A DNA stretch of 64,000 bases from Candidatus Adlerbacteria bacterium (GCA_903851045.1 CAINNF010000023.1:202-64201); one strand, 5' to 3'. Positions 5,282-61,529 are shown, counted from the first letter of the stretch. Program-made: numbers and translations. Notes: generated by a model not told the origin, from the letters alone.

Positions 5282-6019
5282 ATGCTGGTCTACATTGACG
5301 AAACGGGCGACCACAACCTCAACAAGATCGACCCGACGTATCCTCTTTTCGGGCTGGGTGCACTCATGATTTCTGAGGAGGAGTACCAGCGCATGGACGC
5401 TGAAATCTGTGCGATCAAAAAGGAGTTCTTTAACGACGATGGGGCTTTTATCCTCCACTCCTCCGAACTCAAGCGGCCGATCCACGCGAGAAGCGACTCA
5501 AGGAATATAATCATGTCCGACCCTGACACTCGTCGTCGATTTTTCGAAGCGTTCGACACGAGAGTAGTGAGCGCGTTCGACTTTACCATCATCGCCTGTT
5601 TTATCAGAAAACAAGATTTGGTCGAAACTTACGTCCTACCAACCGACTCATATTTCTTTTCGTTCGAAAATATCCTTAACAGGGTCATCAGGTGCGGCAA
5701 CACAACCAACTCGATATATGCAGAACGCCGCGGCGCAGAATTGGATCCGGAATTACTCTCCGAATACGACCGGTTTTGTAAGACTGGCATACGATTCTAC
5801 ACCACTGACGAAGTCATAGCCCGGACGACGTTCAAGCTCGTCAACAAGAAAGAGAACATAAACGGTCTGCAGGTCATCGACCTCCTATTGTCATGCCTCG
5901 CGAGGCACTATCTCGGCAAGACCGAAAAGATGCTCCACAACGACCTTACCCCCGAGCTGGTTATAACAAAATACGCCTGTACCCCAACCTTTTTCCCATA
6001 TAAGAAAAAACCTAGGTAG
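5282..6019 (+). CDS. DUF3800-family protein
   Basis: N-terminal MLVYIDETGD matches the DUF3800 xYIDESG signature. 245 aa. The 3' half is lower in GC. Confidence 0.65.
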   Translation: MLVYIDETGDHNLNKIDPTYPLFGLGALMISEEEYQRMDAEICAIKKEFFNDDGAFILHSSELKRPIHARSDSRNIIMSDPDTRRRFFEAFDTRVVSAFDFTIIACFIRKQDLVETYVLPTDSYFFSFENILNRVIRCGNTTNSIYAERRGAELDPELLSEYDRFCKTGIRFYTTDEVIARTTFKLVNKKENINGLQVIDLLLSCLARHYLGKTEKMLHNDLTPELVITKYACTPTFFPYKKKPR

Positions 6020-6169: not shown

Positions 6170-6838
6170 TTACTTGAATCGGATTATGTCTTGAAATACA
6201 ACAATTGGCCTAGTCTTATCAATCCAATCATTTAGATCTATTACTTTTTCGTACAAAATTCCGTCTTTGTTGACAATAGTCACGCTAGAAATGTCGTAAC
6301 CTTGATCCTCCTCCGTTGGAGAACCCAAAAACCATACTCCGGTGGAAAGATTTTTTGATTGTAGGTAATCAATTAAAGATTTTATGTCATTACCGTCAAT
6401 TTTTCTGTAGGTTGATACAGCAATGCTGTAGGCCTCTAATTTAGGGAGTACGTTTTTTTGCAAAAATTTATCAAAAGTGGACGACCAATTCGTATATTCT
6501 TTAATGTCGAACGGATATGCCCCCATCTTTTCATTTGTTTCTCCAGGTAACCTATATGCGATATAGACGTCATTGTCCGGATTAGTTGGAAACACAAGAT
6601 AGTGTGGATAATTAAAATAATCTTGCAGCGCAACCGCTACAAACATTGCGAAATAACCCTCACGTAAACGCTGATATTTTCGATCTCTGAAAAAAAGATT
6701 TTTATCGGAAGATTTCTCATACTCTTGCAAAGAAATCATGTAAACAGACTCAATTGGCAACAATCTATCTAATGGATAAATCTCTGAAGTGGTCTCAGAA
6801 ATTCTCTTCAAGAAAAAATTGTTGTCCATATTCATCAT
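6170..6838 (-). CDS. hypothetical protein, AT-rich (likely horizontally acquired)
   Basis: Start placed at MMNMDNNFF (ATG 6838), because the 6170..7048 ORF otherwise runs into the ABC-F gene. GC is roughly 35% against about 58% for the flanks. No family recognised. Confidence 0.55.
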   Translation of the reverse strand: MMNMDNNFFLKRISETTSEIYPLDRLLPIESVYMISLQEYEKSSDKNLFFRDRKYQRLREGYFAMFVAVALQDYFNYPHYLVFPTNPDNDVYIAYRLPGETNEKMGAYPFDIKEYTNWSSTFDKFLQKNVLPKLEAYSIAVSTYRKIDGNDIKSLIDYLQSKNLSTGVWFLGSPTEEDQGYDISSVTIVNKDGILYEKVIDLNDWIDKTRPIVVFQDIIRFK

Positions 6839-8310: not shown

Positions 8311-8382
8311 TTGCGGGGGCCGGAATTGCACCGACGACCTTCAGGTTATGAGCCTGACGAGCTACTTCTGCTCCACCCCGCT
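8311..8382 (-). tRNA. initiator tRNA-fMet (CAT)
   Basis: Reverse complement reads AGCGGGGTGGAGCAGAAGTAGCTCGTCAGGCTCATAACCTGAAGGTCGTCGGTGCAATTCCGGCCCCCGCAA. Near-identical to E. coli tRNA-fMet. The 1:72 pair is unpaired (A x A). Anticodon CAT. CCA is not encoded. Confidence 0.85.
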
Positions 8383-8415
8383 ATCCTGAGCCTGCGCTCT
8401 GATAACGCTATTGTA

Positions 8416-8991
8416 TCAAATATAGTCAAATTCTTCAAATACCCGCTGATATTGGTTGATCGTGGCGGTCGCATCTCGCTGCGAAAGGGGGAACGCGTCG
8501 CCAAGGTGGGCGATGGCATTGCGCATGCGGTGGGCCTCCCAGGCGAGGTCGAGCGTGGTGAACTGGAGCGGGTTCGCCTGCTTGAGTTGCTCACCCAGCG
8601 TCTCGCCTGGATACCCACGCTCCGACAGGAGCGAGGCAAGCATGATGTCGGCCTCCAATATCGCTCGCCGCCAATCACTTTCGCTGGACGAGGACGCAAG
8701 CCCCGACACCATCTCCCAACGCAGGTTCTTCGCGGCATGCACATCCTGCTGCCGCTTCGCGCGCTCGCGCTCTTCGATCACCAGGAACCCGTGATGCTCG
8801 ACCTGGATCAGTCGTATGCGCACGTACATGAGCATCACCAGCAACACCACCGCAAGTACCATGCCGATGGTCGCGACCGTTTCGACGAGAAAGATGAACG
8901 TACTGGGTAGTGCCTGCACGTCGACAGGGACGCTCGTGAGCGCCTGGAACATCTTCGCAAATATGTACTCGAGATTTAAGCTGGGGAGCAT
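8416..8991 (-). CDS. membrane-anchored hypothetical protein with HEPN-like R-N-x3-H motif
   Basis: 191 aa. One N-terminal TM helix. C-terminal helical domain containing HRMRNAIAH, which fits the HEPN Rx4-6H motif. Confidence 0.45.
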   Translation of the reverse strand: MLPSLNLEYIFAKMFQALTSVPVDVQALPSTFIFLVETVATIGMVLAVVLLVMLMYVRIRLIQVEHHGFLVIEERERAKRQQDVHAAKNLRWEMVSGLASSSSESDWRRAILEADIMLASLLSERGYPGETLGEQLKQANPLQFTTLDLAWEAHRMRNAIAHLGDAFPLSQRDATATINQYQRVFEEFDYI

Positions 8992-9001
8992 CCCCTCTAT
9001 T

Positions 9002-10435
9002 TTACCCTAGGTTTTGGATTTTCTTCCCTAGTTCGAACAGTGCAGCTTCATCGCCATGTGCCGCAGTGAGTTGGATACCGACGGGGAGCGTCTTCCCTTC
9101 GCGCGTCACGGTGCCCATCGGGACCGAGAGCGCCGGGTTACCAGTGAGGTTGGCGGTCACAGTGAAGATGTCCATGAGATACATAGAAAGCGGGTCGGAC
9201 TTCTCGCCTATCTTGGTCGCCGGACACGGAGCGGTCGGGACAACGATAGCGTCGACGGTCTCGAGCGCTCGCGTGACCTCATCGGTGAGCTTTTGTCGCG
9301 CGAGCCCCGCCTTACCATAGTAGGCGTCATAGTATCCGGCCGAGAGCACGTAGGTACCGAGGATGATGCGACGGCGCACTTCGGGACCGAAGCCAGCCGC
9401 ACGCGACTTTGCATAATCTTCGGTAAGATCTTTTCCTTTGAGCGACAGGCCGTAGCGGATGGAGTCATAGCGCGCGAGATTCGTCGAACTCTCGGCTGGC
9501 ATGATGATGTAGTACACTGCGAGCGCGAGCCCAGCCGAGGGGAGTTCGACATCGACGAGTTCATACCCCTGCGTTTGAAGCTTCGTGAGCACCAGGTCGA
9601 ACTGTGCGAGCACGTCCGCATCGACTCCTTCTTTGAGCAGATGGCGCGGCACACCGACACGTTTGCGACGTGGACGCGCGGCATACTCCCCTTCTCCTAT
9701 CGTCGTACTATCGAGCGGGTCGATACCACGCAACGTGTTGAATATGATCTCCGCATCCTCCACTGACTTAGTGAGTGGGCCGATCTGGTCGAGCGACGAA
9801 CCCATTGCTATCGCACCGAAGCGCGAGACCGCACCGTAGGTTGGTTTGAGCCCCACTAACCCGCAAAAGCTCGCTGGCTCGCGGATGGAGCCGCCAGTGT
9901 CGGTACCAAGCGCGCCAAGCGCCAAGTGTCCCGCGACCGCTGCCGCTGAGCCACCACTGGATCCACCGGGGACTCGCCCTTCGTCGAGCGGGTTCCTCGT
10001 TGGCCCAAAAGCGGAGTTTTCGGTCGAGCCGCCCATCGCGAACTCGTCCATGTTGGTGCGACCGAGAAAGACGACGCCAGCAGCCTTCAATTTTTTGATA
10101 ACGGTCGCGTCATAACTTGCGACATAGTGCTCGAGCATCTTCGACGCGGCGCTCGCGATGCGCCCCTCGATCAAGATATTGTCCTTGATGGCGAGCGGGA
10201 TGCCGAGTAACGGGTGGCTCTCCTTCTTTTCCTTCTCGTCCTGCGCACGACGCGCATCCGCAGCTTTTGCCTGTGCTTCGGCATCGGCAAAGACTTCGAG
10301 GTAGGCGTTGAGAGACGTGTTTCTCTTTTGAATTTCGATAAGACAAGCACGCGCGAGGTCGAGTGAGGTTATCTCCTTAGCCTTGAGCTTCTTTGCGGCC
10401 TCAGTAATCGAGAGCTGTGCGAGTGTGGTTTCCAT
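9002..10435 (-). CDS. gatA: Glu/Asp-tRNA amidotransferase subunit A
   Basis: 477-aa amidase-signature protein (GGSSGGSAAAVA). Immediately downstream of gatC. Confidence 0.9.
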   Translation of the reverse strand: METTLAQLSITEAAKKLKAKEITSLDLARACLIEIQKRNTSLNAYLEVFADAEAQAKAADARRAQDEKEKKESHPLLGIPLAIKDNILIEGRIASAASKMLEHYVASYDATVIKKLKAAGVVFLGRTNMDEFAMGGSTENSAFGPTRNPLDEGRVPGGSSGGSAAAVAGHLALGALGTDTGGSIREPASFCGLVGLKPTYGAVSRFGAIAMGSSLDQIGPLTKSVEDAEIIFNTLRGIDPLDSTTIGEGEYAARPRRKRVGVPRHLLKEGVDADVLAQFDLVLTKLQTQGYELVDVELPSAGLALAVYYIIMPAESSTNLARYDSIRYGLSLKGKDLTEDYAKSRAAGFGPEVRRRIILGTYVLSAGYYDAYYGKAGLARQKLTDEVTRALETVDAIVVPTAPCPATKIGEKSDPLSMYLMDIFTVTANLTGNPALSVPMGTVTREGKTLPVGIQLTAAHGDEAALFELGKKIQNLG

Positions 10436-30534: not shown

Positions 30535-30623
30535 GGAGAGGTGCCAGAGCGGTCGAATGGAGCAACCTGCTAAGTTGTTGACTGGGTAACCGGTCCGAGG
30601 GTTCGAATCCCTCCCTCTCCGCA
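30535..30623 (+). tRNA. tRNA-Ser (GCT)
   Basis: Type II tRNA: GGAGAGG acceptor, D stem CCA/TGG, anticodon arm GCAAC-CTGCTAA-GTTGT (anticodon GCT), long variable arm, T arm GAGGG-TTCGAAT-CCCTC. CCA is not encoded. Confidence 0.85.
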
Positions 30624-45178: not shown

Positions 45179-45264
45179 GGAGAGATGGATGAGTGGTTTA
45201 AATCAACAGTTTACTAAACTGTCGGCCCGTCAAGGGCCCGCGAGTTCGAATCTCGCTCTCTCCG
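45179..45264 (+). tRNA. type II (Ser-like) tRNA with apparent anticodon ACT
   Basis: GGAGAGA acceptor, D stem GAT/ATC, anticodon arm ACAGT-TTACTAA-ACTGT, variable arm GGCCC-GTCAA-GGGCC, T arm GCGAG-TTCGAAT-CTCGC. The loop differs from the Ser-GCT loop (CTGCTAA) by G34 to A. Confidence 0.7.
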
Positions 45265-52498: not shown

Positions 52499-53019
52499 GA
52501 CTCGGGTTCGAGCAGCACTTTCAATTTCTTTAATCCTCGGTGGATGCGCACGGACACGACGTTCTCGCTCTCGTCCAACACCACGGATATCTCCTGGGGA
52601 CTCATACCCTCGACATATCGCAGCAGCAACACTTCGCGGTAGAGGTCGGGTAGTTCGGCCAACACCTGGAGCACCCGCTTCCCTTCGAAACGCTCGACGG
52701 CCGCCTCGAACGTGTTGGTGTCATCGGTCGGGAGCAGTCGCTCCACCGACTCGTCCTCGGCCAGCATCATACCTTCGAGCGACACGGTCTTGTGTTTGCG
52801 ATACTCGTCGATGATGAGGTGCCGGAGCGTCCGAAACAGGAATGGTCGGTACTCGCGGACCTCGTTGCCTCTCGCGACATACTCCCACACGCGCATGAAC
52901 GTCTCCTGGACCAACTCGACCGCGCGTTCGCGCTCTGGTAGCCGAAGCGAGGCGTGTCGAAAGAGCTCGTCGGTATGGGCTTCGAACGCTTGTTCAAATT
53001 CTTTATTCGTATCTGTCAT
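52495..53019 (-). CDS. RNA polymerase sigma-70 factor, ECF subfamily
   Basis: 174 aa. Region 2 (FRTLRHLIIDEYRKHK). Region 4 HTH (LYREVLLLRYVEGMSPQEISVVLDESENVVSVRIHRGLKKL). Confidence 0.8.
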   Translation of the reverse strand: MTDTNKEFEQAFEAHTDELFRHASLRLPERERAVELVQETFMRVWEYVARGNEVREYRPFLFRTLRHLIIDEYRKHKTVSLEGMMLAEDESVERLLPTDDTNTFEAAVERFEGKRVLQVLAELPDLYREVLLLRYVEGMSPQEISVVLDESENVVSVRIHRGLKKLKVLLEPES

Positions 53020-53092
53020 GGTAGACGCAGCAACAAGGCTTTTCTTTCACACCAAAGGTGTGCCGCCCGCCACAGGCCCCCTTACTATACCG

Positions 53093-53115
53093 AAACACAA
53101 AAAATCCCCAAGGGG
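53093..53115 (-). terminator. terminator-like repeat, copy 1
   Basis: On the minus strand CCCCTTGGGG is followed by ATTTTTTGTGTTT. The 23-mer is identical to the copy at 53669..53691. Confidence 0.45.
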
Positions 53116-53229
53116 ATCCTTTGTTCGACGCTGGACACAACCTTTTCGTCCTTTTGGACTCATCAGCTCAAACGCACATTTGAGTAAGGTTGGGAGCTTT
53201 TATAGGCGCTCCCAAACCAGTGGGTGGAA

Positions 53230-53547
53230 TCAAAACCGGTCTCGTCGGGAGTCGGTGAAGAAATACACCCCCACCCGCTTGAATAAATTTATATAGCCAA
53301 TTACCAGGGCGGTGACCGCCGCCGCCGCAAGAACTACGACGGCCCATGACGACAAATAGAGGATCTTCTCTCCCTCGATCGTCGTGGGACGCCCCGCGAA
53401 CCAGTAGTAATGCAGCGAGATGTAGATGTTTTCTACCACTCGCGGCGCGACGGTCTGGCAGAAAGGCACAGCGAAGCAGACCATGATGACGATAAAAAAT
53501 ACCCACTCAAAGAAATACTTTTCAAAGAACTTCGTCAAGGTCCGCAC
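53230..53547 (-). CDS. small hypothetical membrane protein (2 TM)
   Basis: 105-aa ORF. Terminator repeat roughly 115 nt downstream. Confidence 0.4.
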   Translation of the reverse strand: MRTLTKFFEKYFFEWVFFIVIMVCFAVPFCQTVAPRVVENIYISLHYYWFAGRPTTIEGEKILYLSSWAVVVLAAAAVTALVIGYINLFKRVGVYFFTDSRRDRF

Positions 53548-53668
53548 TTCAACCTCCTTTCGTTGCAGTCACCGTGTTTTGGTGACCTTGATACGTGCAG
53601 AGAGAAGCCCTGCACTCCTCTAGGATATAGGTATCGGAGACACTTGTCAAGTAATAAGAAATGTTGTA

Positions 53669-53691
53669 AAACACAAAAAATCCCCAAGGGG
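53669..53691 (-). terminator. terminator-like repeat, copy 2
   Basis: Same 23-nt sequence as 53093..53115. Confidence 0.45.
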
Positions 53692-53836
53692 CCACAGATC
53701 ATCGACAGCGCTTAGAGGAGAGAGATTTACCCGGGCCGAAGCCTCGGTATCTTACTCACGCTGTGTCTGATCTGAAGCCCTTCAGGGACTTCTGTCATAT
53801 TCCGCACCATCAGGACTCCTCTCGAGAATCCTGTAC

Positions 53837-53936
53837 CAGGGAGCTATCCCCTCTTGAATCCATCATTCGACCTTGCTCATGGCACATGAGTCGTCAAATG
53901 GTGTGCTCAAGAGAGGGCACCGACACGAGGGTCGAT
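53837..53936. repeat. ~100-nt repeat unit A (internal imperfect inverted repeat + GC hairpin + CCAAGTTTG)
   Basis: About 75% identical to unit B (56827..56931) in the same orientation. Arms cctcttgaatccatcattcgac and gtcgtcaaatggtgtgctcaagagagg are inverted copies. The flanking hairpin differs between units but remains a hairpin. Confidence 0.6.
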
Positions 53937-53963
53937 GCCAAGTTTGTACGCACGAAAGAACTT

Positions 53964-54710
53964 TTACATGATCTTGAACTTCTGCGGCTTCTCCTTCCGC
54001 CGCCACTTCCAGCTGCGGTGGGGCTGGCGCGCGTAGTCGTCCTTTTTTTCCCCGGAAGAGTGATCACGCGACCCACCCCACTGCGGAGCGACTGGCACCG
54101 ACCACTCATCATCTTCTCCCGCCCCATACCACGGGTGGAAAAAGTCGAAGTGGTCGTCGCGGATCTCCAGTATCGCGCCGTTGTCGTCGCCTGAGGCATA
54201 TTGTTTGCCCACAGGCAACACTTCCTCGGCGTACGACAAGTCGTCGTCAAGGAAGTCGTCCGGGTCGCCCAGCAGCTCCTCCTCGGGCGCCGGGTCGAAT
54301 TTCACAGGACGGTCCATATCCTCGAGTGCCTGGGCGATCGCCCAGGGCCGGCACGAAGACCGCGGCCAGCGCCACTTGTAGTCCCGCCGGTTCTTCCAGC
54401 AGCGGAAGTCCCGACGACGATTATGGGGGATTCGATCCAACGGGCGCCAAGACAACATGTCGTACACGTCGGACATGTCGTCGTACTCATAGTCTGCCGC
54501 CCGAGCATTTATCCGCTTGCTTTTGACACGGATGCGCAGAGCTTCCCGAAGGTTGCCCAACGCCGTACCGGTCGCAAACGGAATTCCGTTCCGAAGATAG
54601 ACGACCGGGATTTCGCGAGCAAACTCGCGAAGCCTCGCTTCCACTTCACCTGTATTCATCACCACCGAGGTGGCGCGACACTCTTTCAAGCGCAGGGTAT
54701 CCAAAGACAT
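53964..54710 (-). CDS. hypothetical protein (N-terminus paralogous to 55684..56166), acidic/basic-rich C-terminal half
   Basis: Start placed at MSLDTLRL (ATG 54710, GAGGAGGG upstream). Lies downstream of leader-element copy 1. Confidence 0.5.
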   Translation of the reverse strand: MSLDTLRLKECRATSVVMNTGEVEARLREFAREIPVVYLRNGIPFATGTALGNLREALRIRVKSKRINARAADYEYDDMSDVYDMLSWRPLDRIPHNRRRDFRCWKNRRDYKWRWPRSSCRPWAIAQALEDMDRPVKFDPAPEEELLGDPDDFLDDDLSYAEEVLPVGKQYASGDDNGAILEIRDDHFDFFHPWYGAGEDDEWSVPVAPQWGGSRDHSSGEKKDDYARQPHRSWKWRRKEKPQKFKIM

Positions 54711-54750
54711 CCCTCCTCTCGTCAATAGCCAGCCAAAAAAACAAAACTAT

Positions 54751-54825
54751 ATCCGACCACCGCACGAACCGAAGTTCCTGCGGCAGATAAGATAGGCGAG
54801 CACCAGGAATCTCCTGATGCTCGCC
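54751..54825 (-). ncRNA. conserved structured 5'-leader RNA element, copy 1
   Basis: The minus strand has an outer stem GGCGAGCA...UGCUCGCC enclosing a CAGGAGAUUCCUGG hairpin, then AUCUUAUCU, then CCGCAGGAACUUCGGUUCGUGCGG (UUCG-capped hairpin), then a U-run. Lies 40 nt upstream of the ATG at 54710. Confidence 0.55.
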
Positions 54826-55330
54826 GAAGTTTGTGAGGGACTGCCCCTTAGTCCCAGCCTGCAGCCGAATGCTTTCGCACCCGATGACAGTAGCTTCGGC
54901 GCTTGTGCGCGCCGGGCTGGTATCAGAGTTCCATCGTGGGGATTATCGCTGTCATTCTCACCCCCAGATCCTCTTGATGGTTTGGCGAGTTTCATCACTC
55001 GGGAGATCTGCTTCTCCTGGCTCACCACTTCCGCTGGTGACGCGTTGGTTTTATTCTTTTGGCTCATGGAGACTTGTGCGGCTTGTGCGTTGTGACACAG
55101 GGTGCCTCGTACTGATGCGGTGCGAAATCATTCACCCGCGCCTGAGGACAAGGTCCACCGTGTGAAGATACCGCCCTTCGCCTTTGCTCCACTCCCCAAA
55201 CAGGAGACTCTACTCCTGACCCCAGGTTCGGCATGAAGGAATTTCTCATACCTAGGTCATTTATCTAAGCGCCGACCCTGGCGCGTCCTCACAAGCCCAA
55301 CGCAACCTCCTTTCCAATTTCCCTCTCATG

Positions 55331-55408
55331 ATCCAACCACCGCACGAACCGAAGCTCCTGCGGTAGATAAGATGGGCGAGCCAAACAGGAACCTCCTGCT
55401 GCTCGCCC
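55331..55408 (-). ncRNA. conserved structured leader RNA element, copy 2
   Basis: Same architecture. The outer stem has covarying sequence GGGCGAGC/GCUCGCCC. The inner hairpin is CAGGAGGUUCCUG. No convincing ORF lies downstream. Confidence 0.5.
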
Positions 55409-55414
55409 CTTGCT

Positions 55415-55681
55415 TCAATGAACCTTTCGCTTTCTCAATGCCGCCACCTCGACGAGATAGACGCCTTCGGGCTTACACTTCGGGCAGTCGCCCGAGAATG
55501 TGAGCCTGGCGCCAACTGCCCCACTTCGGAGCTCCTGGCCGAGAGCCGTATCGAGACTCTTCGTCATGAACTTCCTTGCGGTCTCTTCCGTTGCCGGGTA
55601 CGAGCCGCAATGTTCACACACGAAGATGAATGTACGTTCGGGGGGTGGAACCCCGGTAACAATCTTTTTTCGCCGAGTCAC
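55415..55681 (-). CDS. small zinc-ribbon protein
   Basis: 88 aa with CEHCG...CPKC. The second gene after leader copy 3. Stop/start spacing to the upstream gene is 2 nt. Confidence 0.45.
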   Translation of the reverse strand: MTRRKKIVTGVPPPERTFIFVCEHCGSYPATEETARKFMTKSLDTALGQELRSGAVGARLTFSGDCPKCKPEGVYLVEVAALRKRKVH

Positions 55682-55683
55682 GA

Positions 55684-56166
55684 CTACCTCCTTCCGGCAT
55701 GCAGAGCCGGGTTACGGTTACGCTGCACCGGCGAGGGCGAGACTTGCGCCCGACCCAGGCGGCGCTCGAACTCTCGAGCAATACGCCGGGCGAGCGCTGG
55801 CAAATCTCCGAGGTCTTCCTCGCAGACCAAGACATCAGCCTTGGTCGCGTCTTTCGCGGTATTTTTGGTGACGTCGATCGTCACCGTAACCCCGTCAAAG
55901 ACGAATACACCATCGACTCCGTGCATATAGTCGAGCACGGAGCCGAGAGCCGAGCGAAACTGAATCGTTTCACCCAGCAGAATCCGCAGCTCCCGTAAAA
56001 TACGGGTTACGGTCGGAGTGCGTATTGGAGGCTGGCGAGCAGTAAGCACCACCTCCATCGCTGCGTCGTACGGCAGATAGTCGCCGCGACGCGCAACGAC
56101 TGCGCATACCCCCAGCACCCTCTCCTCAAAGAGGCCGCCGGTTTCGCCAGTCATACGATTACTCAC
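55684..56166 (-). CDS. hypothetical protein (N-terminus paralogous to 53964..54710)
   Basis: GTG start at 56166 with AAGGAGGAGG upstream. 160 aa. Immediately downstream of leader copy 3. Confidence 0.5.
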   Translation of the reverse strand: MSNRMTGETGGLFEERVLGVCAVVARRGDYLPYDAAMEVVLTARQPPIRTPTVTRILRELRILLGETIQFRSALGSVLDYMHGVDGVFVFDGVTVTIDVTKNTAKDATKADVLVCEEDLGDLPALARRIAREFERRLGRAQVSPSPVQRNRNPALHAGRR

Positions 56167-56194
56167 GGCAACCTCCTCCTTTTTTCTCTATTTG

Positions 56195-56279
56195 ATCCAA
56201 CCACCGCACGAACCGAAGCTCCTGCGGCAGATAAGATGGGCGAGCCAGATCACAGGTACCTCCTGTTCTCCTCTCGCCC
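56195..56279 (-). ncRNA. conserved structured leader RNA element, copy 3
   Basis: Outer stem GGGCGAG/CUCGCCC. Inner hairpin ACAGGAGGUACCUGU. Then AUCUUAUCU. Then CCGCAGGAGCUUCGGUUCGUGCGG. About 25 nt upstream of the RBS of 55684..56166. Confidence 0.55.
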
Positions 56280-56378
56280 TTTTTCTTAAACCTTTCCTTT
56301 ACATCCCCGAACATCGGGGAACTCTGTTGGAAGTACCGCCGACCAAGGCGGACCCCCAACTATTTTAACCAGCGGCCG

Positions 56379-56783
56379 TTAGGCCGCCCGACGAACCTCC
56401 TCCGTTGCGTCGTCCATCAAGTCGGCCGCCGAGTCGGCCAGCCGCTGGGCCTTCAGCTGCGCGGCACGGGCCGCCTTCAGCTCCGTGTAGGCAGAGTCTG
56501 GCGCTTGCCACTCCCGCAACAACTCCAGCGCCTTCGCATGACCAAGCCCCATGGGTCCGATCATGTGGGGGATGTGCGCGAGCAGCAGTTCATTCTTGTG
56601 GGCGTCGTTGGCGCTCTCCAGCGCCTTCATATCGGCGGGGGTCGCCCCGTCCCGCACCAGGATGGCGCGGGCGGCGGCGTAGCCGCACCCCGTCTCCTCG
56701 TTTACCATGGCGCGCAGCTGCGCCTCGGAGAAGTTCCGGTGGGTCGGCAGCTTGGTAACGTTGGTCATCTGAACTCTCCTCAA
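56379..56783 (-). CDS. hypothetical protein (helical, Ala/Leu/Glu-rich)
   Basis: 134-aa ORF. Repeat unit B lies 45-150 nt upstream. Confidence 0.45.
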   Translation of the reverse strand: MRRVQMTNVTKLPTHRNFSEAQLRAMVNEETGCGYAAARAILVRDGATPADMKALESANDAHKNELLLAHIPHMIGPMGLGHAKALELLREWQAPDSAYTELKAARAAQLKAQRLADSAADLMDDATEEVRRAA

Positions 56784-56826
56784 AGGCCACCTCAGTGGCC
56801 GGTTTACCTAACTTAGGGGAACCTTT

Positions 56827-56931
56827 CCCCTCTTGAACCCGCCATTTGACCACATGGCTCGTCATGAGCGAAGTCGAATGATGTTCTCAAGAGAGGAGGT
56901 CAGGGCGCAAGCGCTCCTGACCCCAAGTTTG
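56827..56931. repeat. ~100-nt repeat unit B
   Basis: Same organisation as unit A: cccctcttgaa...catttgacc arm, its inverted partner gtcgaatgatgttctcaagagagg, the hairpin ggtcagg-gcgcaagcgc-tcctgacc, then ccaagtttg. Confidence 0.6.
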
Positions 56932-57629
56932 CCAGTTCAGTAATAGCTATGTTCTGAACTGGGTAGCACAAAGAACTTCATCGGTGCCGCATGACACCAC
57001 CCCTTTCAATCTTCCAATCATCGCACCCGTGCCGATGATCGGGAGATGTTAGAGTAATGGTTTTTTAAAGAGGACCACCCAACCTCTAAGCGAACACCTT
57101 AATACGTGGCGTTCGCCTCACGCGCCTTACAGCGCGCCTTCTCCGGCGTCTCCGCGAAGTGCGGAATCCGATGGGAATCGAGTGCGTAGTAAAGCATATC
57201 CAAGCCCTTTCTAGGCTTGTGCGACCTACTATGCCCACAGGTCGCGGTCGTGGGGGTTGCCACTTACCCTTTGGGGGTCGAAGTGGCGTCAGGGTCAGCA
57301 CCGAAATGCGGACCCTCTTTCCGGCATAATGGCTGCGATGCGACGATGTGGTGCGCTATCGGCTTGGCCATTGTGCTGGAGAAGAGGAACAACATTTTCT
57401 CTATCAGGACGCAAAACTATTCTGCGCCCCGCCCCGTGAGAGCAAAGCTCTTTTACGGGGGTTATTCACTATTCACCTATGGCATCGAGCGACACTGTTT
57501 AGGAGCTTGCTCGAAGGATTCTGTCAAAGACCGCTCTCTCATGGAGAGTGTGGCGTGAGCGAGTGGGCACGCGGCGTATATATGTGCCGGCCGAACTCCC
57601 TCGCGCTAGACTCTCAACGAAAAACGACT

Positions 57630-57663
57630 ACTTCTTTAGGAGAGAAGTAGTCGTTGTCCGCCC
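57630..57663 (-). terminator. strong rho-independent terminator
   Basis: Perfect 12-bp stem acgactacttct / agaagtagtcgt with a 7-nt loop. On the minus strand it is followed by TTTTTCGTT. Confidence 0.65.
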
Positions 57664-57777
57664 ACACGATGGCTGGGCTATAGTAAGTACCGTCAACCCA
57701 TGTCGGGCTTCTGGTGCTTTGTGACTCTCTCCTCTAAAGATGGTCTGTATGAAATTGTGAGGTGCTCGCACTTGAAC
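57630..57777 (-). ncRNA. candidate small RNA (~150 nt) bounded by a near-consensus promoter and a strong terminator
   Basis: No ORF (ATGGGTTGA only). Promoter at 57784..57812. Terminator at 57630..57663. Lies downstream of the malic enzyme gene in an otherwise ORF-free 0.8-kb stretch. Confidence 0.35.
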
Positions 57778-57783
57778 AATATC

Positions 57784-57812
57784 AATATACACCCATGCTT
57801 GACATTTGTCAA
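57784..57812 (-). promoter_or_regulatory. sigma70-type promoter (minus strand)
   Basis: Minus strand reads TTGACA, 17 nt (aatgtcaagcatgggtg), TATATT. Confidence 0.5.
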
Positions 57813-57869
57813 GGGGTCTGTCACTAACAAAGTACCGTGACGAGAAACAGGGCCTACAATAAGGGCTTT

Positions 57870-59081
57870 TTAACGGATCGCTTTGGCAACCGTCTCGGCA
57901 ACACCCTTGTCGAAGGGGCCGGGGATGACCTTGTCTGCCGAAGGCCCTTTCACGAGCGCGGCAAGGTTGCGAGCAGCCCTGAGCTTCATCTCGTCGGTTA
58001 TCTTGGTGACCTTGTGGTCGAGCGCCCCGCGGAATATGCCGGGGAATGCGAGCGAGTTGTTGATCTGGTTGGGGTAGTCGGAGCGTCCGGTCGCTATGAC
58101 CGCCGCACCTCCCCTCTTTGCTTCTTCTGGCGTGATCTCGGGAGTCGGGTTGGCGAGCGCAAAGACGATCGGCTTGTCTGCCATCAATCTGACATGTCCA
58201 GAATGCATGAGCCCTGGGCCAGAGACGCCGATGATAGCGTCGGCCTCGTGCAACGCCTCGTTCAGACCCCCTTCGACGCTCAGCGGGTTGGTGAGCGTGG
58301 CGAGCTCTTGTTTGTGGAGCGTGAGGTCGGTACGCTTTTTGGAAATGATGCCTTTGCTGTCGAGTACGATGATGTCTCGGATACCGGACAGCAAGAGGAG
58401 CTTCGCTATCGCGGTGCCTGCGGCACCGGCACCCGATATGACGACGCGCATCTTCTTGAAGTCGCGTTTGGTGACCTTAGCCGCGTTGATAAGCGCCGCG
58501 AGCGAGACGATAGCGGTGCCATGCTGGTCGTCGTGCATGACCGGGATGTCGAGCGCTGCCTTCACTCGCTCCTCTATCTCGAAGCAGTTGGGCGCCGCGA
58601 AATCTTCGAGATTGATACCGCCGAACGCGGGCGCGATGCGCACGATCGTCTCGACGACCCGGTCGACGTAATTGGCGCCCGCCTGGGTCGACATATCCAG
58701 CACGATCGGGAACGCGTCGACGTCGGCGAACGACTTAAAGAGCGCCGCCTTCCCTTCCATCACCGGGAGCGCACCATAGGGGCCGATGTTGCCAAGCCCC
58801 AACACGGCGGTGCCGTCGGAGATGACCGCGACCATCCTTTTTTTGATCGTATATTCTTTGGCGGCCTTTCTTTGCTGCTCGACAGGCTGCGGCACGCGCG
58901 CCGTACCCGCGATGAGCGTCGAGACGGCAGCGACACCCGGTGTATACACGAGACTCAGGTCGGCGCGGTTCTTCACTGGTGCCGCTGGCGTGATACGGAT
59001 CTTCCCCCCAAGCTTCTTGTGCAGGGCGATAGCCTTCTTGGTAACATCGGGAGCTTTGCTGGTTTTGGTAGTTTTTTTCAT
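57870..59081 (-). CDS. NAD(P)-dependent malic enzyme (short form)
   Basis: Start MKKTTK (ATG 59081). LVYTPGVAAV. Rossmann GAGAAG. About 404 aa, typical of truncated bacterial malic enzymes. Confidence 0.85.
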   Translation of the reverse strand: MKKTTKTSKAPDVTKKAIALHKKLGGKIRITPAAPVKNRADLSLVYTPGVAAVSTLIAGTARVPQPVEQQRKAAKEYTIKKRMVAVISDGTAVLGLGNIGPYGALPVMEGKAALFKSFADVDAFPIVLDMSTQAGANYVDRVVETIVRIAPAFGGINLEDFAAPNCFEIEERVKAALDIPVMHDDQHGTAIVSLAALINAAKVTKRDFKKMRVVISGAGAAGTAIAKLLLLSGIRDIIVLDSKGIISKKRTDLTLHKQELATLTNPLSVEGGLNEALHEADAIIGVSGPGLMHSGHVRLMADKPIVFALANPTPEITPEEAKRGGAAVIATGRSDYPNQINNSLAFPGIFRGALDHKVTKITDEMKLRAARNLAALVKGPSADKVIPGPFDKGVAETVAKAIR

Positions 59082-61415: not shown

Positions 61416-61457
61416 ATTCTGAGCTATAGTGGCTACGAGTTCCCAGCGGGCGCGTAG

Positions 61458-61529
61458 CTCAGCGGTAGAGCCGTCGTCTTATACACGACTGGTCGAAGGT
61501 TCGATCCCTTCCGCGCCCACTTTTTTATC
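61458..61529 (+). tRNA. tRNA-Ile (TAT)
   Basis: GGGCGCG acceptor, D arm GCTC-AGCGGTA-GAGC, anticodon arm GTCGT-CTTATAC-ACGAC (anticodon TAT), T arm GAAGG-TTCGATC-CCTTC, discriminator A. A T-run follows. CCA is not encoded. Confidence 0.8.

Follow-up and report, generated by a model that had tools for sequence, protein, structure and literature searches.

We analysed a 64,000-nucleotide (nt) stretch of DNA from a Candidatus Adlerbacteria bacterium (GCA_903851045.1, CAINNF010000023.1:202-64201), referred to here as the window. Two repeats of about 100 nt within it, units A and B, lie in an island of small genes, and an earlier note on this DNA had read them as a possible mobile repeat family. 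Judged from the sequences, the two units are copies of a cis-acting structured RNA module carried in a long minus-strand polycistronic transcript. The module possibly serves as operon 'punctuation' for mRNA processing or stability, a reading to which we assign a probability of about 0.4.

The direct repeats are real, and the coordinates given for them (unit A, 53837-53936; unit B, 56827-56931) were right. The 5′ arms (53839-53872 and 56818-56851) were 79% identical and the 3′ arms (53893-53916 and 56873-56896) 88% identical. The reported overall identity of about 75% held for the arms only; global alignment over the same coordinates gave 55%, because the GC hairpin is unalignable and the units are offset. 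Degenerate arm patterns occurred at two places only in the 64 kb, i.e. at the two units, and shuffled sequences gave an expectation of 0.00. The arms are inverted as had been described, each unit forming an imperfect hairpin, and fold z-scores of the units ranged from -3.7 to -5.2. The GC hairpin and the string CCAAGTTTG were present in both units; however, CCAAGTTTG of unit A lies at 53938-53946, beyond the end proposed for that unit.

The minus strand carries every credible open reading frame (ORF) between 53,019 and 57,870, and the region is therefore to be read on that strand. The module then consists, in order, of a variable hairpin P1, a conserved hairpin P2, hairpins P3 and P4, and the ribosome-binding site of the next gene. 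P2 is an interrupted hairpin of about 20 base pairs (bp). Its lower stem has 11 bp and its middle stem 7-8 bp, with a 2x2 internal loop between them, and its apex is variable. Its base is CCUCU/AGAGG or CCCUUUU/AAAAGGG. The internal loop and the apex are unconserved, and apex length varies from 3 to ~75 nt. The apex of the B-type unit in the related island L021 (6300-6345) has a 24-nt internal tandem duplication (GACUUCGCUCAUGAC...) that is absent in the window, indicating that the apex tolerates large length changes. P1 has unrelated sequence; it precedes P2 in all copies examined and is located 0-2 nt 5′ of P2 in the copies folded. P3 is usually formed by pairing of a downstream C-run with the G-run that also serves the P2 base, and it is followed in many copies by the variable P4 and then by a ribosome-binding site and start codon. 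The start codon is 28-180 nt after P2 in all copies with downstream sequence, except for the last copy of each island (unit A in the window, L030d, and L034d), which is followed by a long terminal terminator hairpin and not by a gene. P3 and the P2 base of unit B share the sequence GGGG, and the layout of the 3′ part of this unit recurs in L021, L030, and L025. Unit A is fused directly to the terminator hairpin, termed X.

Some of the copies of the module were collected with R1, a covariance model of P2. A scan of the window, run without filters, revealed two copies only, units A and B, both inside the island. R1 also found four copies in L030, four in L034, and the second copy in L025, where a third was spotted by eye. 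L021 has a B-type unit upstream of its gene A homologue and an A-type unit after its gene D homologue, i.e. at orthologous positions, and L023 has two tandem copies upstream of its gene A homologue. A refined pattern scan of metagenomes gave three further genuine members (L025-L027). Earlier exact-pattern scans had given one match in viral contigs and 13 in 185,579 species genomes, all of them chance matches lacking the other features of the units. In total, 18 module copies were obtained from eight related gene islands from metagenomes; all were gene-sense and all were intergenic.

The P2 helix was paired in 88.3% of cells across the 18 copies, and 11 of its 20 pairs were changed on both sides (35 cells), e.g. 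with C-G replaced by U-A and G-C by A-U in L030-type lower stems. No shuffle control out of 500 reached the observed values, although this statistic overstates independence because the 18 copies are mutually related; slid-register controls were 35-55% paired. The compensatory changes between the two sequence types are clear all the same. A G19·U99 wobble was found in 18 of 18 copies and a U24·G94 wobble in 12 of 18. On the plus strand these positions would be mismatched, so that the wobbles indicate RNA pairing on the gene strand, which outscored the opposite strand by 20-27 bits with R1. At the level of sequence, these results establish for the module RNA-type pairing on the gene strand, an intergenic position, cross-species conservation, and restriction to the island.

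Rfam 15 at its gathering threshold matched nothing but tRNAs in the window, and no Rfam model matched over the units even at E ≤ 10 in the window and L021. The tRNA genes are four, dispersed at 8311-8382, 30535-30621, 45179-45264, and 61448-61519. The units are a previously undescribed orphan structured-RNA motif within a known category, the repeated intergenic mRNA hairpin modules.

The earlier note had proposed a non-autonomous mobile repeat resembling a miniature inverted-repeat transposable element (MITE), and the inverted arms, the size of about 100 nt, the non-coding character, and the variable island are all consistent with such an element. The arms do form terminal inverted repeats, but the covariation of their pairing and the retention of G·U wobbles on a single strand point to an RNA hairpin. 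The 64 kb of the window contain just two copies, neither of them outside the island, and each of the 18 copies lies between genes, in gene-sense orientation, within one of the homologous islands. No target-site duplication flanked P2 or P1-P3 in any copy read. Six strain contigs showed no insertion polymorphism across the region, A- and B-type units occupy orthologous sites in L021, and units are conserved at orthologous sites in genomes whose protein identity is just 37-53%. All matches in the 185,579 species genomes and in the viral contigs were due to chance, and the genuine relatives, three in number, came from metagenomes. We therefore reject the MITE-like origin as very unlikely, on the grounds of copy number, orientation, missing target-site duplications, lack of polymorphism, orthologous positions, and strand-specific covariation. 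What was found is essentially what the earlier note had named as the alternative to a mobile family, plain local terminators or leaders. We infer that local duplication and recombination between modules, rather than transposition, generated the repeat copies.

As operon punctuation, the module would act after transcription. An RNase III-type endoribonuclease specific for double strands would recognise and cleave the ~20-bp P2 duplex. The long mRNA would thereby be divided into fragments of gene size, with P1 shielding the new 3′ ends and P3/P4 shielding the new 5′ ends. This reading is favoured because P2 has at least 20 bp with an internal loop and flanking hairpins on both sides, and because a unit sits where L021 has a self-cleaving hammerhead, between the last gene and X. 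It is favoured also because P2 has no conserved unpaired bases, which argues against a small-molecule aptamer. The length of an RNase III substrate (about two helical turns) is reached by the 11 + 7-8 bp together with the apical stems. Several points besides the relatedness of the copies weigh against punctuation. The RNase III step is purely conjectural. Conservation within the helix (UCUUGAG/UUCAAGA and CAUCAUU/AAUGRUG) could equally reflect binding of a regulatory protein, and a single-stranded DNA hairpin would also preserve compensatory changes. The 3′ G-run of P2 can pair with the 5′ C-run or with the downstream C-run (P3) in most copies, as judged by eye, and this dual pairing would suit a conformational switch better than a static cleavage site. 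The tandem copies in L023 and L034 have no obvious use for processing.

The principal rival is accordingly a conformational riboregulator, a 5′ untranslated region (UTR) sensor, most likely of a protein or another RNA because no conserved unpaired nucleotides would suit a small ligand, in which the G-run switches between the P2 base and P3. The output would be translation of the next gene or, for the last copy, termination at the X hairpin. The two C-rich partners of the G-run are present in most of the 18 copies, and where the G-run ends in A (L034b, L034c) a matching U is found in both partners, as judged by eye from the sequences. P3/P4 with a ribosome-binding site, or a terminator hairpin, always follow, resembling an aptamer with interchangeable output platforms. 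Tandem copies occur, as in some riboswitches, and pseudoknots resembling the preQ1-I class lie directly upstream of P2 in L023 and L030. On the other hand, the internal loop and apex of P2 are unconserved and the conserved bases lie within helices, the ribosome-binding site is outside any conserved pairing, and no ligand or binding protein can be named. We regard this riboregulator as possible but rather unlikely. A new self-cleaving ribozyme, in which P1-P2-P3 would cut itself, is improbable: almost no unpaired nucleotide is conserved, there is no junction or pseudoknot core, and no Rfam ribozyme model matched at E ≤ 10. Its appeal lies in the position shared with the hammerhead of L021 and in the invariant G·U wobble adjoining the internal loop. 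Weinberg and colleagues reportedly identified the new ribozyme classes twister-sister, pistol, and hatchet in 2015 from conserved RNAs that lay close to hammerheads, in gene clusters whose functions were unknown.

The units might instead act at the DNA level, as attC-like or cruciform sites for cassette shuffling, possibly cut by the family-B protein, a candidate for the PD-(D/E)xK fold. Gene content between modules does vary by species with breakpoints at module edges, the conserved arms and variable centre recall attC, and family B, with its conserved Asp, Asp, Asp, and Lys, gives weak matches mostly to Holliday-junction resolvases and homing endonucleases. These fold matches are non-significant, however (best E = 0.75), and plain homologous recombination between repeated leaders explains the breakpoints. 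No RYYYAAC/GTTRRRY boxes were found at the hairpin base across copies; GTTAGGT occurs after unit B only and not at other copies. The Pfam-annotated genes in ~20 kb around the island include no integrase or transposase, and the examined parts of the L021, L023, and L030 contigs likewise gave no recombinase Pfam match. Moreover, L021 has units without genes B/C and L041 has genes B/C without units. We consider such recombination sites improbable. Independent genes for trans-acting small RNAs, which the earlier note had offered as paired small RNAs, are very unlikely even though the folds are stable and the plus strand has a GC hairpin at the unit end. The units are embedded in an operon and have neither promoter nor terminator of their own: no promoter-like site is next to either unit, no U-tract follows the plus-strand hairpin, and the conserved wobbles favour the minus strand. 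A broader joint reading, which we consider unlikely, is a modular, RNA-punctuated gene-cassette system in which ORFan cassettes are swapped between conserved RNA modules. These modules could be the P1-P2-P3 unit, the leader termed D1, the hammerhead, and the preQ1-I-like pseudoknots, all built on AGAGG:CCUCU pairing. The P2 unit could then be a new ribozyme class or a dedicated substrate of the nuclease-like protein of the island, and the 5′ leader could pair with the 3′ terminator via UUAGAGG/CCUCUAA, coupling expression of the island to read-through into the ECF sigma gene.

Table 1. Features of the accessory island in the window, with positions counted from the first nucleotide of the window
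Feature	Coordinates	Strand	Description
Whole accessory island	53020..57869	-	One operon with lineage-restricted genes and intergenic RNA modules; based on synteny and empty site
Island promoter and leader	57623..57812	-	TTGACA-17-TATATT at 57784-57812; ~155-nt leader to terminator at 57623-57655
Unit B, 5′ part	56898..56931	-	CAAACUUGG, then variable GC hairpin P1; from fold
Unit B, P2	56826..56897	-	20-bp interrupted hairpin with variable apex; R1 69.4 bits versus 42 on opposite strand
Unit B, 3′ part	56774..56825	-	P3 GGGGAAAGGUUCCCC, UAAGUU, P4 GGCCACUGAGGUGGCC, ribosome-binding site GAGGAGAG
Gene A	56379..56768	-	129 amino acids (aa); downstream of unit B; homologues with same leader type in L021 and L023
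D1 leader, copy 3	56193..56300	-	Upstream of genes B and C
Gene B	55684..56166	-	160 aa
Gene C	55415..55681	-	88 aa; zinc-ribbon-like
D1 leader, copy 2	55329..55433	-	
Supposed relic	55100..55233	-	Conserved leader; only first 21 nt in common with unit B; no P2
D1 leader, copy 1	54749..54825	-	Upstream of gene D; orthologues upstream of gene D in L021, L023, and L034
Gene D	53964..54710	-	248 aa
Unit A, 5′ part	53916..53946	-	CAAACUUGG, then P1
Unit A, P2	53846..53915	-	R1 64.0 bits versus 44 on opposite strand
Unit A, P3	53835..53850	-	P4, ribosome-binding site, and downstream gene missing, compared with L021 8522-8680
X element	53669..53831	-	~125-nt hairpin and U-tract; 91% identical to L021 9255-9406; fold z = -6.8
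23-mer, copy 1	53669..53691	-	3′ strand of X hairpin base and U-tract
576-bp module	53116..53668	-	Promoter at 53622-53650, 105-aa membrane-protein gene, hammerhead
Membrane-protein gene	53230..53547	-	105 aa
Type III hammerhead motif	53138..53192	-	3′ UTR of 105-aa gene
23-mer, copy 2	53093..53115	-	Own short 12-bp hairpin, then U6; ends module of 105-aa gene and hammerhead

The island of ~4.8 kb lies between a malic-enzyme gene (ending at 57870) and an ECF sigma gene (starting at 53019). In L032/L033 the sigma gene follows the malic-enzyme gene after 35 bp, i.e. the site is empty, which indicates that the whole island is accessory. The 3-kb segment bracketed by the repeats is thus not the accessory unit that had been proposed; units A and B are internal modules of the larger island and are orthologous in relatives. 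The region is hypervariable as claimed, with different sets of small genes in L021, L023, L030, and L034. The sigma protein is encoded on 14 metagenomic contigs, and the six compared were 99.9-100% identical across the region, giving neither strain polymorphism nor covariation information. Distant relatives were reached via anti-sigma homologues (L034 via gene B); a word-based search with the gene A protein retrieved itself alone. The relatives derived from anti-sigma keep the order RecG, malic enzyme, island, ECF sigma, and anti-sigma. Identity of their anti-sigma protein to that of the window was 53% for L021/L022, 37-38% for L023/L024, and 48%, over half of the protein, for L030. One anti-sigma homologue is named Candidatus Paceibacterota, from which we infer a lineage related to the candidate phyla radiation. 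As regards phage origin, no blastn match was found among 50,697 phage records, and the island genes gave no convincing PHROG match (one marginal, E = 0.011) and no PADLOC match.

L021 lacks genes B and C between two D1 copies, and its 139-aa cassette begins right after P3. Breakpoints at module edges are expected from homologous recombination between repeated leaders, and recombination between D1 copies explains the absence of genes B/C. Two mostly non-coding stretches, 54737-55381 and 57306-57890, were 94% and 89% identical to L021, where the flanking anti-sigma protein was only 53% identical. Within the former, a 106-aa ORF (54747-55067) is in frame in L021 for only its first ~45 codons. The island start of L030 (5331-5862) has two small genes of 91 and 78 aa that are absent from the window and, by sequence, look like a toxin-antitoxin pair of the RelE/ParE type.

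A third, decayed copy of the unit had been proposed at 55100-55230. Both strings quoted for it are there, but they belong to a separate conserved element and not to a decaying copy. A 21-nt segment (55213-55233) was 86% identical to the 5′ end of unit B, and the covariance model found no P2 hairpin at this site. The surrounding 647 nt were 94% identical to L021, in which anti-sigma protein identity is 53%. The lack of P2 and the 94% conservation of the surroundings indicate a conserved element in its own right. A doubtful ORF adjoins it (55233→55100 and onward).

Pfam, PHROG, and PADLOC indeed left the genes described as hypothetical without annotation. At least 153 clusters (E < 1e-3) make up the family of gene B, which is itself unannotated and in which Gly, Lys, and three Asp are invariant. 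The AlphaFold model of gene B was confident (pLDDT 89), and its structural neighbours, mostly PD-(D/E)xK nucleases/resolvases and homing endonucleases, were non-significant (best E = 0.75). Gene B is always followed by a gene for a small zinc-ribbon protein; the B + C pair is found also in L041, without units.

The 5′ end of the operon is defined by a strong, near-consensus promoter, a leader, and a strong terminator that precedes the rest of the operon, and this arrangement is kept in L021, L023, L025, L030, and L034. The leader RNA of ~155 nt could be an attenuator or a separate small RNA. A long conserved non-coding stretch lies between the leader terminator and unit B. The leader sequence UUAGAGGAGAGAG (57725-57737) is perfectly complementary over 13 nt to CUCUCUCCUCUAA (53712-53724) in the loop region of the X terminator hairpin, and the 7-nt core UUAGAGG/CCUCUAA occurs exactly once per island end in L021, L023, L030, and L034. 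Pairing of the 5′ leader sequence AGAGGAGAGAG with the P2 5′ arms was also considered, but showed no covariation in L030 and was dropped. The three leader-RNA copies noted previously were confirmed, at 55 nt each. This D1 leader consists of a terminator-like hairpin of variable sequence, AUCUUAUCU, and a UUCG-capped hairpin, and is the cognate leader of gene D in L021, L023, and L034. H-type pseudoknots resembling preQ1-I (AGAGG-UU-loop-CCUCU-UUAAAAAAC and tail) are located at 57055-57090 (minus strand) in the window, at 5735-5765 and 6064-6093 in L021, and directly upstream of P2 in L023 (~8405-8435) and L030 (~6640-6680). Their loop/tail pairing covaries between copies. Against RF00522 they scored 14-19 bits, below the threshold of 39, with nearly all consensus positions matched.

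At the 3′ end, the exact 23-mer previously reported at 53093 and 53669 was found at both places (0.00 expected by chance). On the minus strand it reads CCCCUUGGGG-AUUUUUUGUGUUU, and it marks an intrinsic terminator, in which a GC-rich stem-loop and then a U-tract close a transcription unit on the transcribed strand. The X element, which contains CUCUCUCCUCUAA, is evidently the terminal intrinsic terminator of the operon, as predicted from its fold and U-tract, and strong canonical terminators are found at the orthologous position in L023, L030, and L034. After unit A, a good ribosome-binding site precedes a 27-aa ORF, which was rejected as a gene because its ATG is absent in L021 despite 91% DNA identity. 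Before the sigma gene, L021 has a single X terminator, and two terminator copies are present in the window. The X that precedes copy 1 matches the X of L021, and the DNA 3′ of copy 2 matches the DNA 3′ of the L021 terminator. These matches indicate that the 576 bp between the 23-mers are a module inserted together with a duplicated terminator, by local rearrangement and not by transposition.

The hammerhead in this module reads CAACCUUA|CUCAAA...UUUGAG-CUGAUGAG-UCCAAAAGGA-CGAAA-AGGUUG. The core CUGANGA...GAAA, three stems, and the NUH triplet were present in both the window and L021, where sequence and minimum-free-energy fold gave the canonical three-way junction. The L021 orthologue (9199-9250; CUGACGAG) differs from it by two compensatory pairs in stem I. 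Both scored below Rfam gathering thresholds (window, 19.3 versus 48.5 bits for Hammerhead_3; L021, 23.7 versus 34 bits for Hammerhead_1), and the motif is a minimal form without loop-loop contacts. A strict structural hammerhead pattern, scanned against the island loci and other related contigs, had no further match. The hammerhead of L021 lies between the last gene and X, the position held by a unit in the window, L030, and L034.

Phage T7 has intercistronic hairpins that are processed by RNase III (R0.3, R1.1, and others). Like the units, they recur between the cistrons of a long polycistronic mRNA as hairpins that resemble one another, are ~20 bp long, and contain an internal loop, and they leave hairpin-protected ends, as cleavage of the units would. 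The units differ from them in having no sequence similarity, an uncultured bacterial host, and the additional P1, P3, and P4. The REP/BIME, ERIC, and Correia repeats, MITE-like elements that act on mRNA stability, are likewise imperfect palindromes of 50-150 nt that form RNA hairpins in transcribed intergenic regions. They are, however, scattered in tens to hundreds of copies with either orientation and, in the case of Correia, with target-site duplications, whereas the units are restricted to one operon, always gene-sense, and without duplications. Integron attC sites share with the units conserved arms, a centre of variable length, and a location between small genes of unknown function and the same orientation in a variable array. 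Unlike attC, the units have no R″/R′ core boxes and no nearby integrase, and they are not found at every gene boundary; D1 leaders stand in at some. A further comparison is with orphan candidate structured-RNA motifs (PMC5737381), which are also supported by covariation, intergenic, without an assigned function, and found in a narrow lineage. In contrast to such motifs (e.g. PMC5737381), the module occurs in several copies per operon, together with hammerhead and preQ1-I-like pseudoknots, and is not in Rfam 15.

The host is an uncultured freshwater bacterium, and the operon is lineage-specific and fast-changing. A literature search on hammerheads and structured RNAs in Patescibacteria and the candidate phyla radiation retrieved nothing relevant, and to our knowledge almost no regulatory RNAs have been described for the candidate phyla radiation and related uncultured lineages. 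The 4.8 kb studied here are dense in RNA elements: the new module, a second repeated leader, a hammerhead, preQ1-I-like pseudoknots, and 5′-3′ complementarity. The results also correct a tempting misreading, since units with inverted repeats around hypothetical genes are not necessarily mobile DNA. The module is a compact, testable RNA element of about 100 nt and, should it prove to be a device for processing or switching, would reveal how the expression of fast-evolving genes is organised in such organisms.

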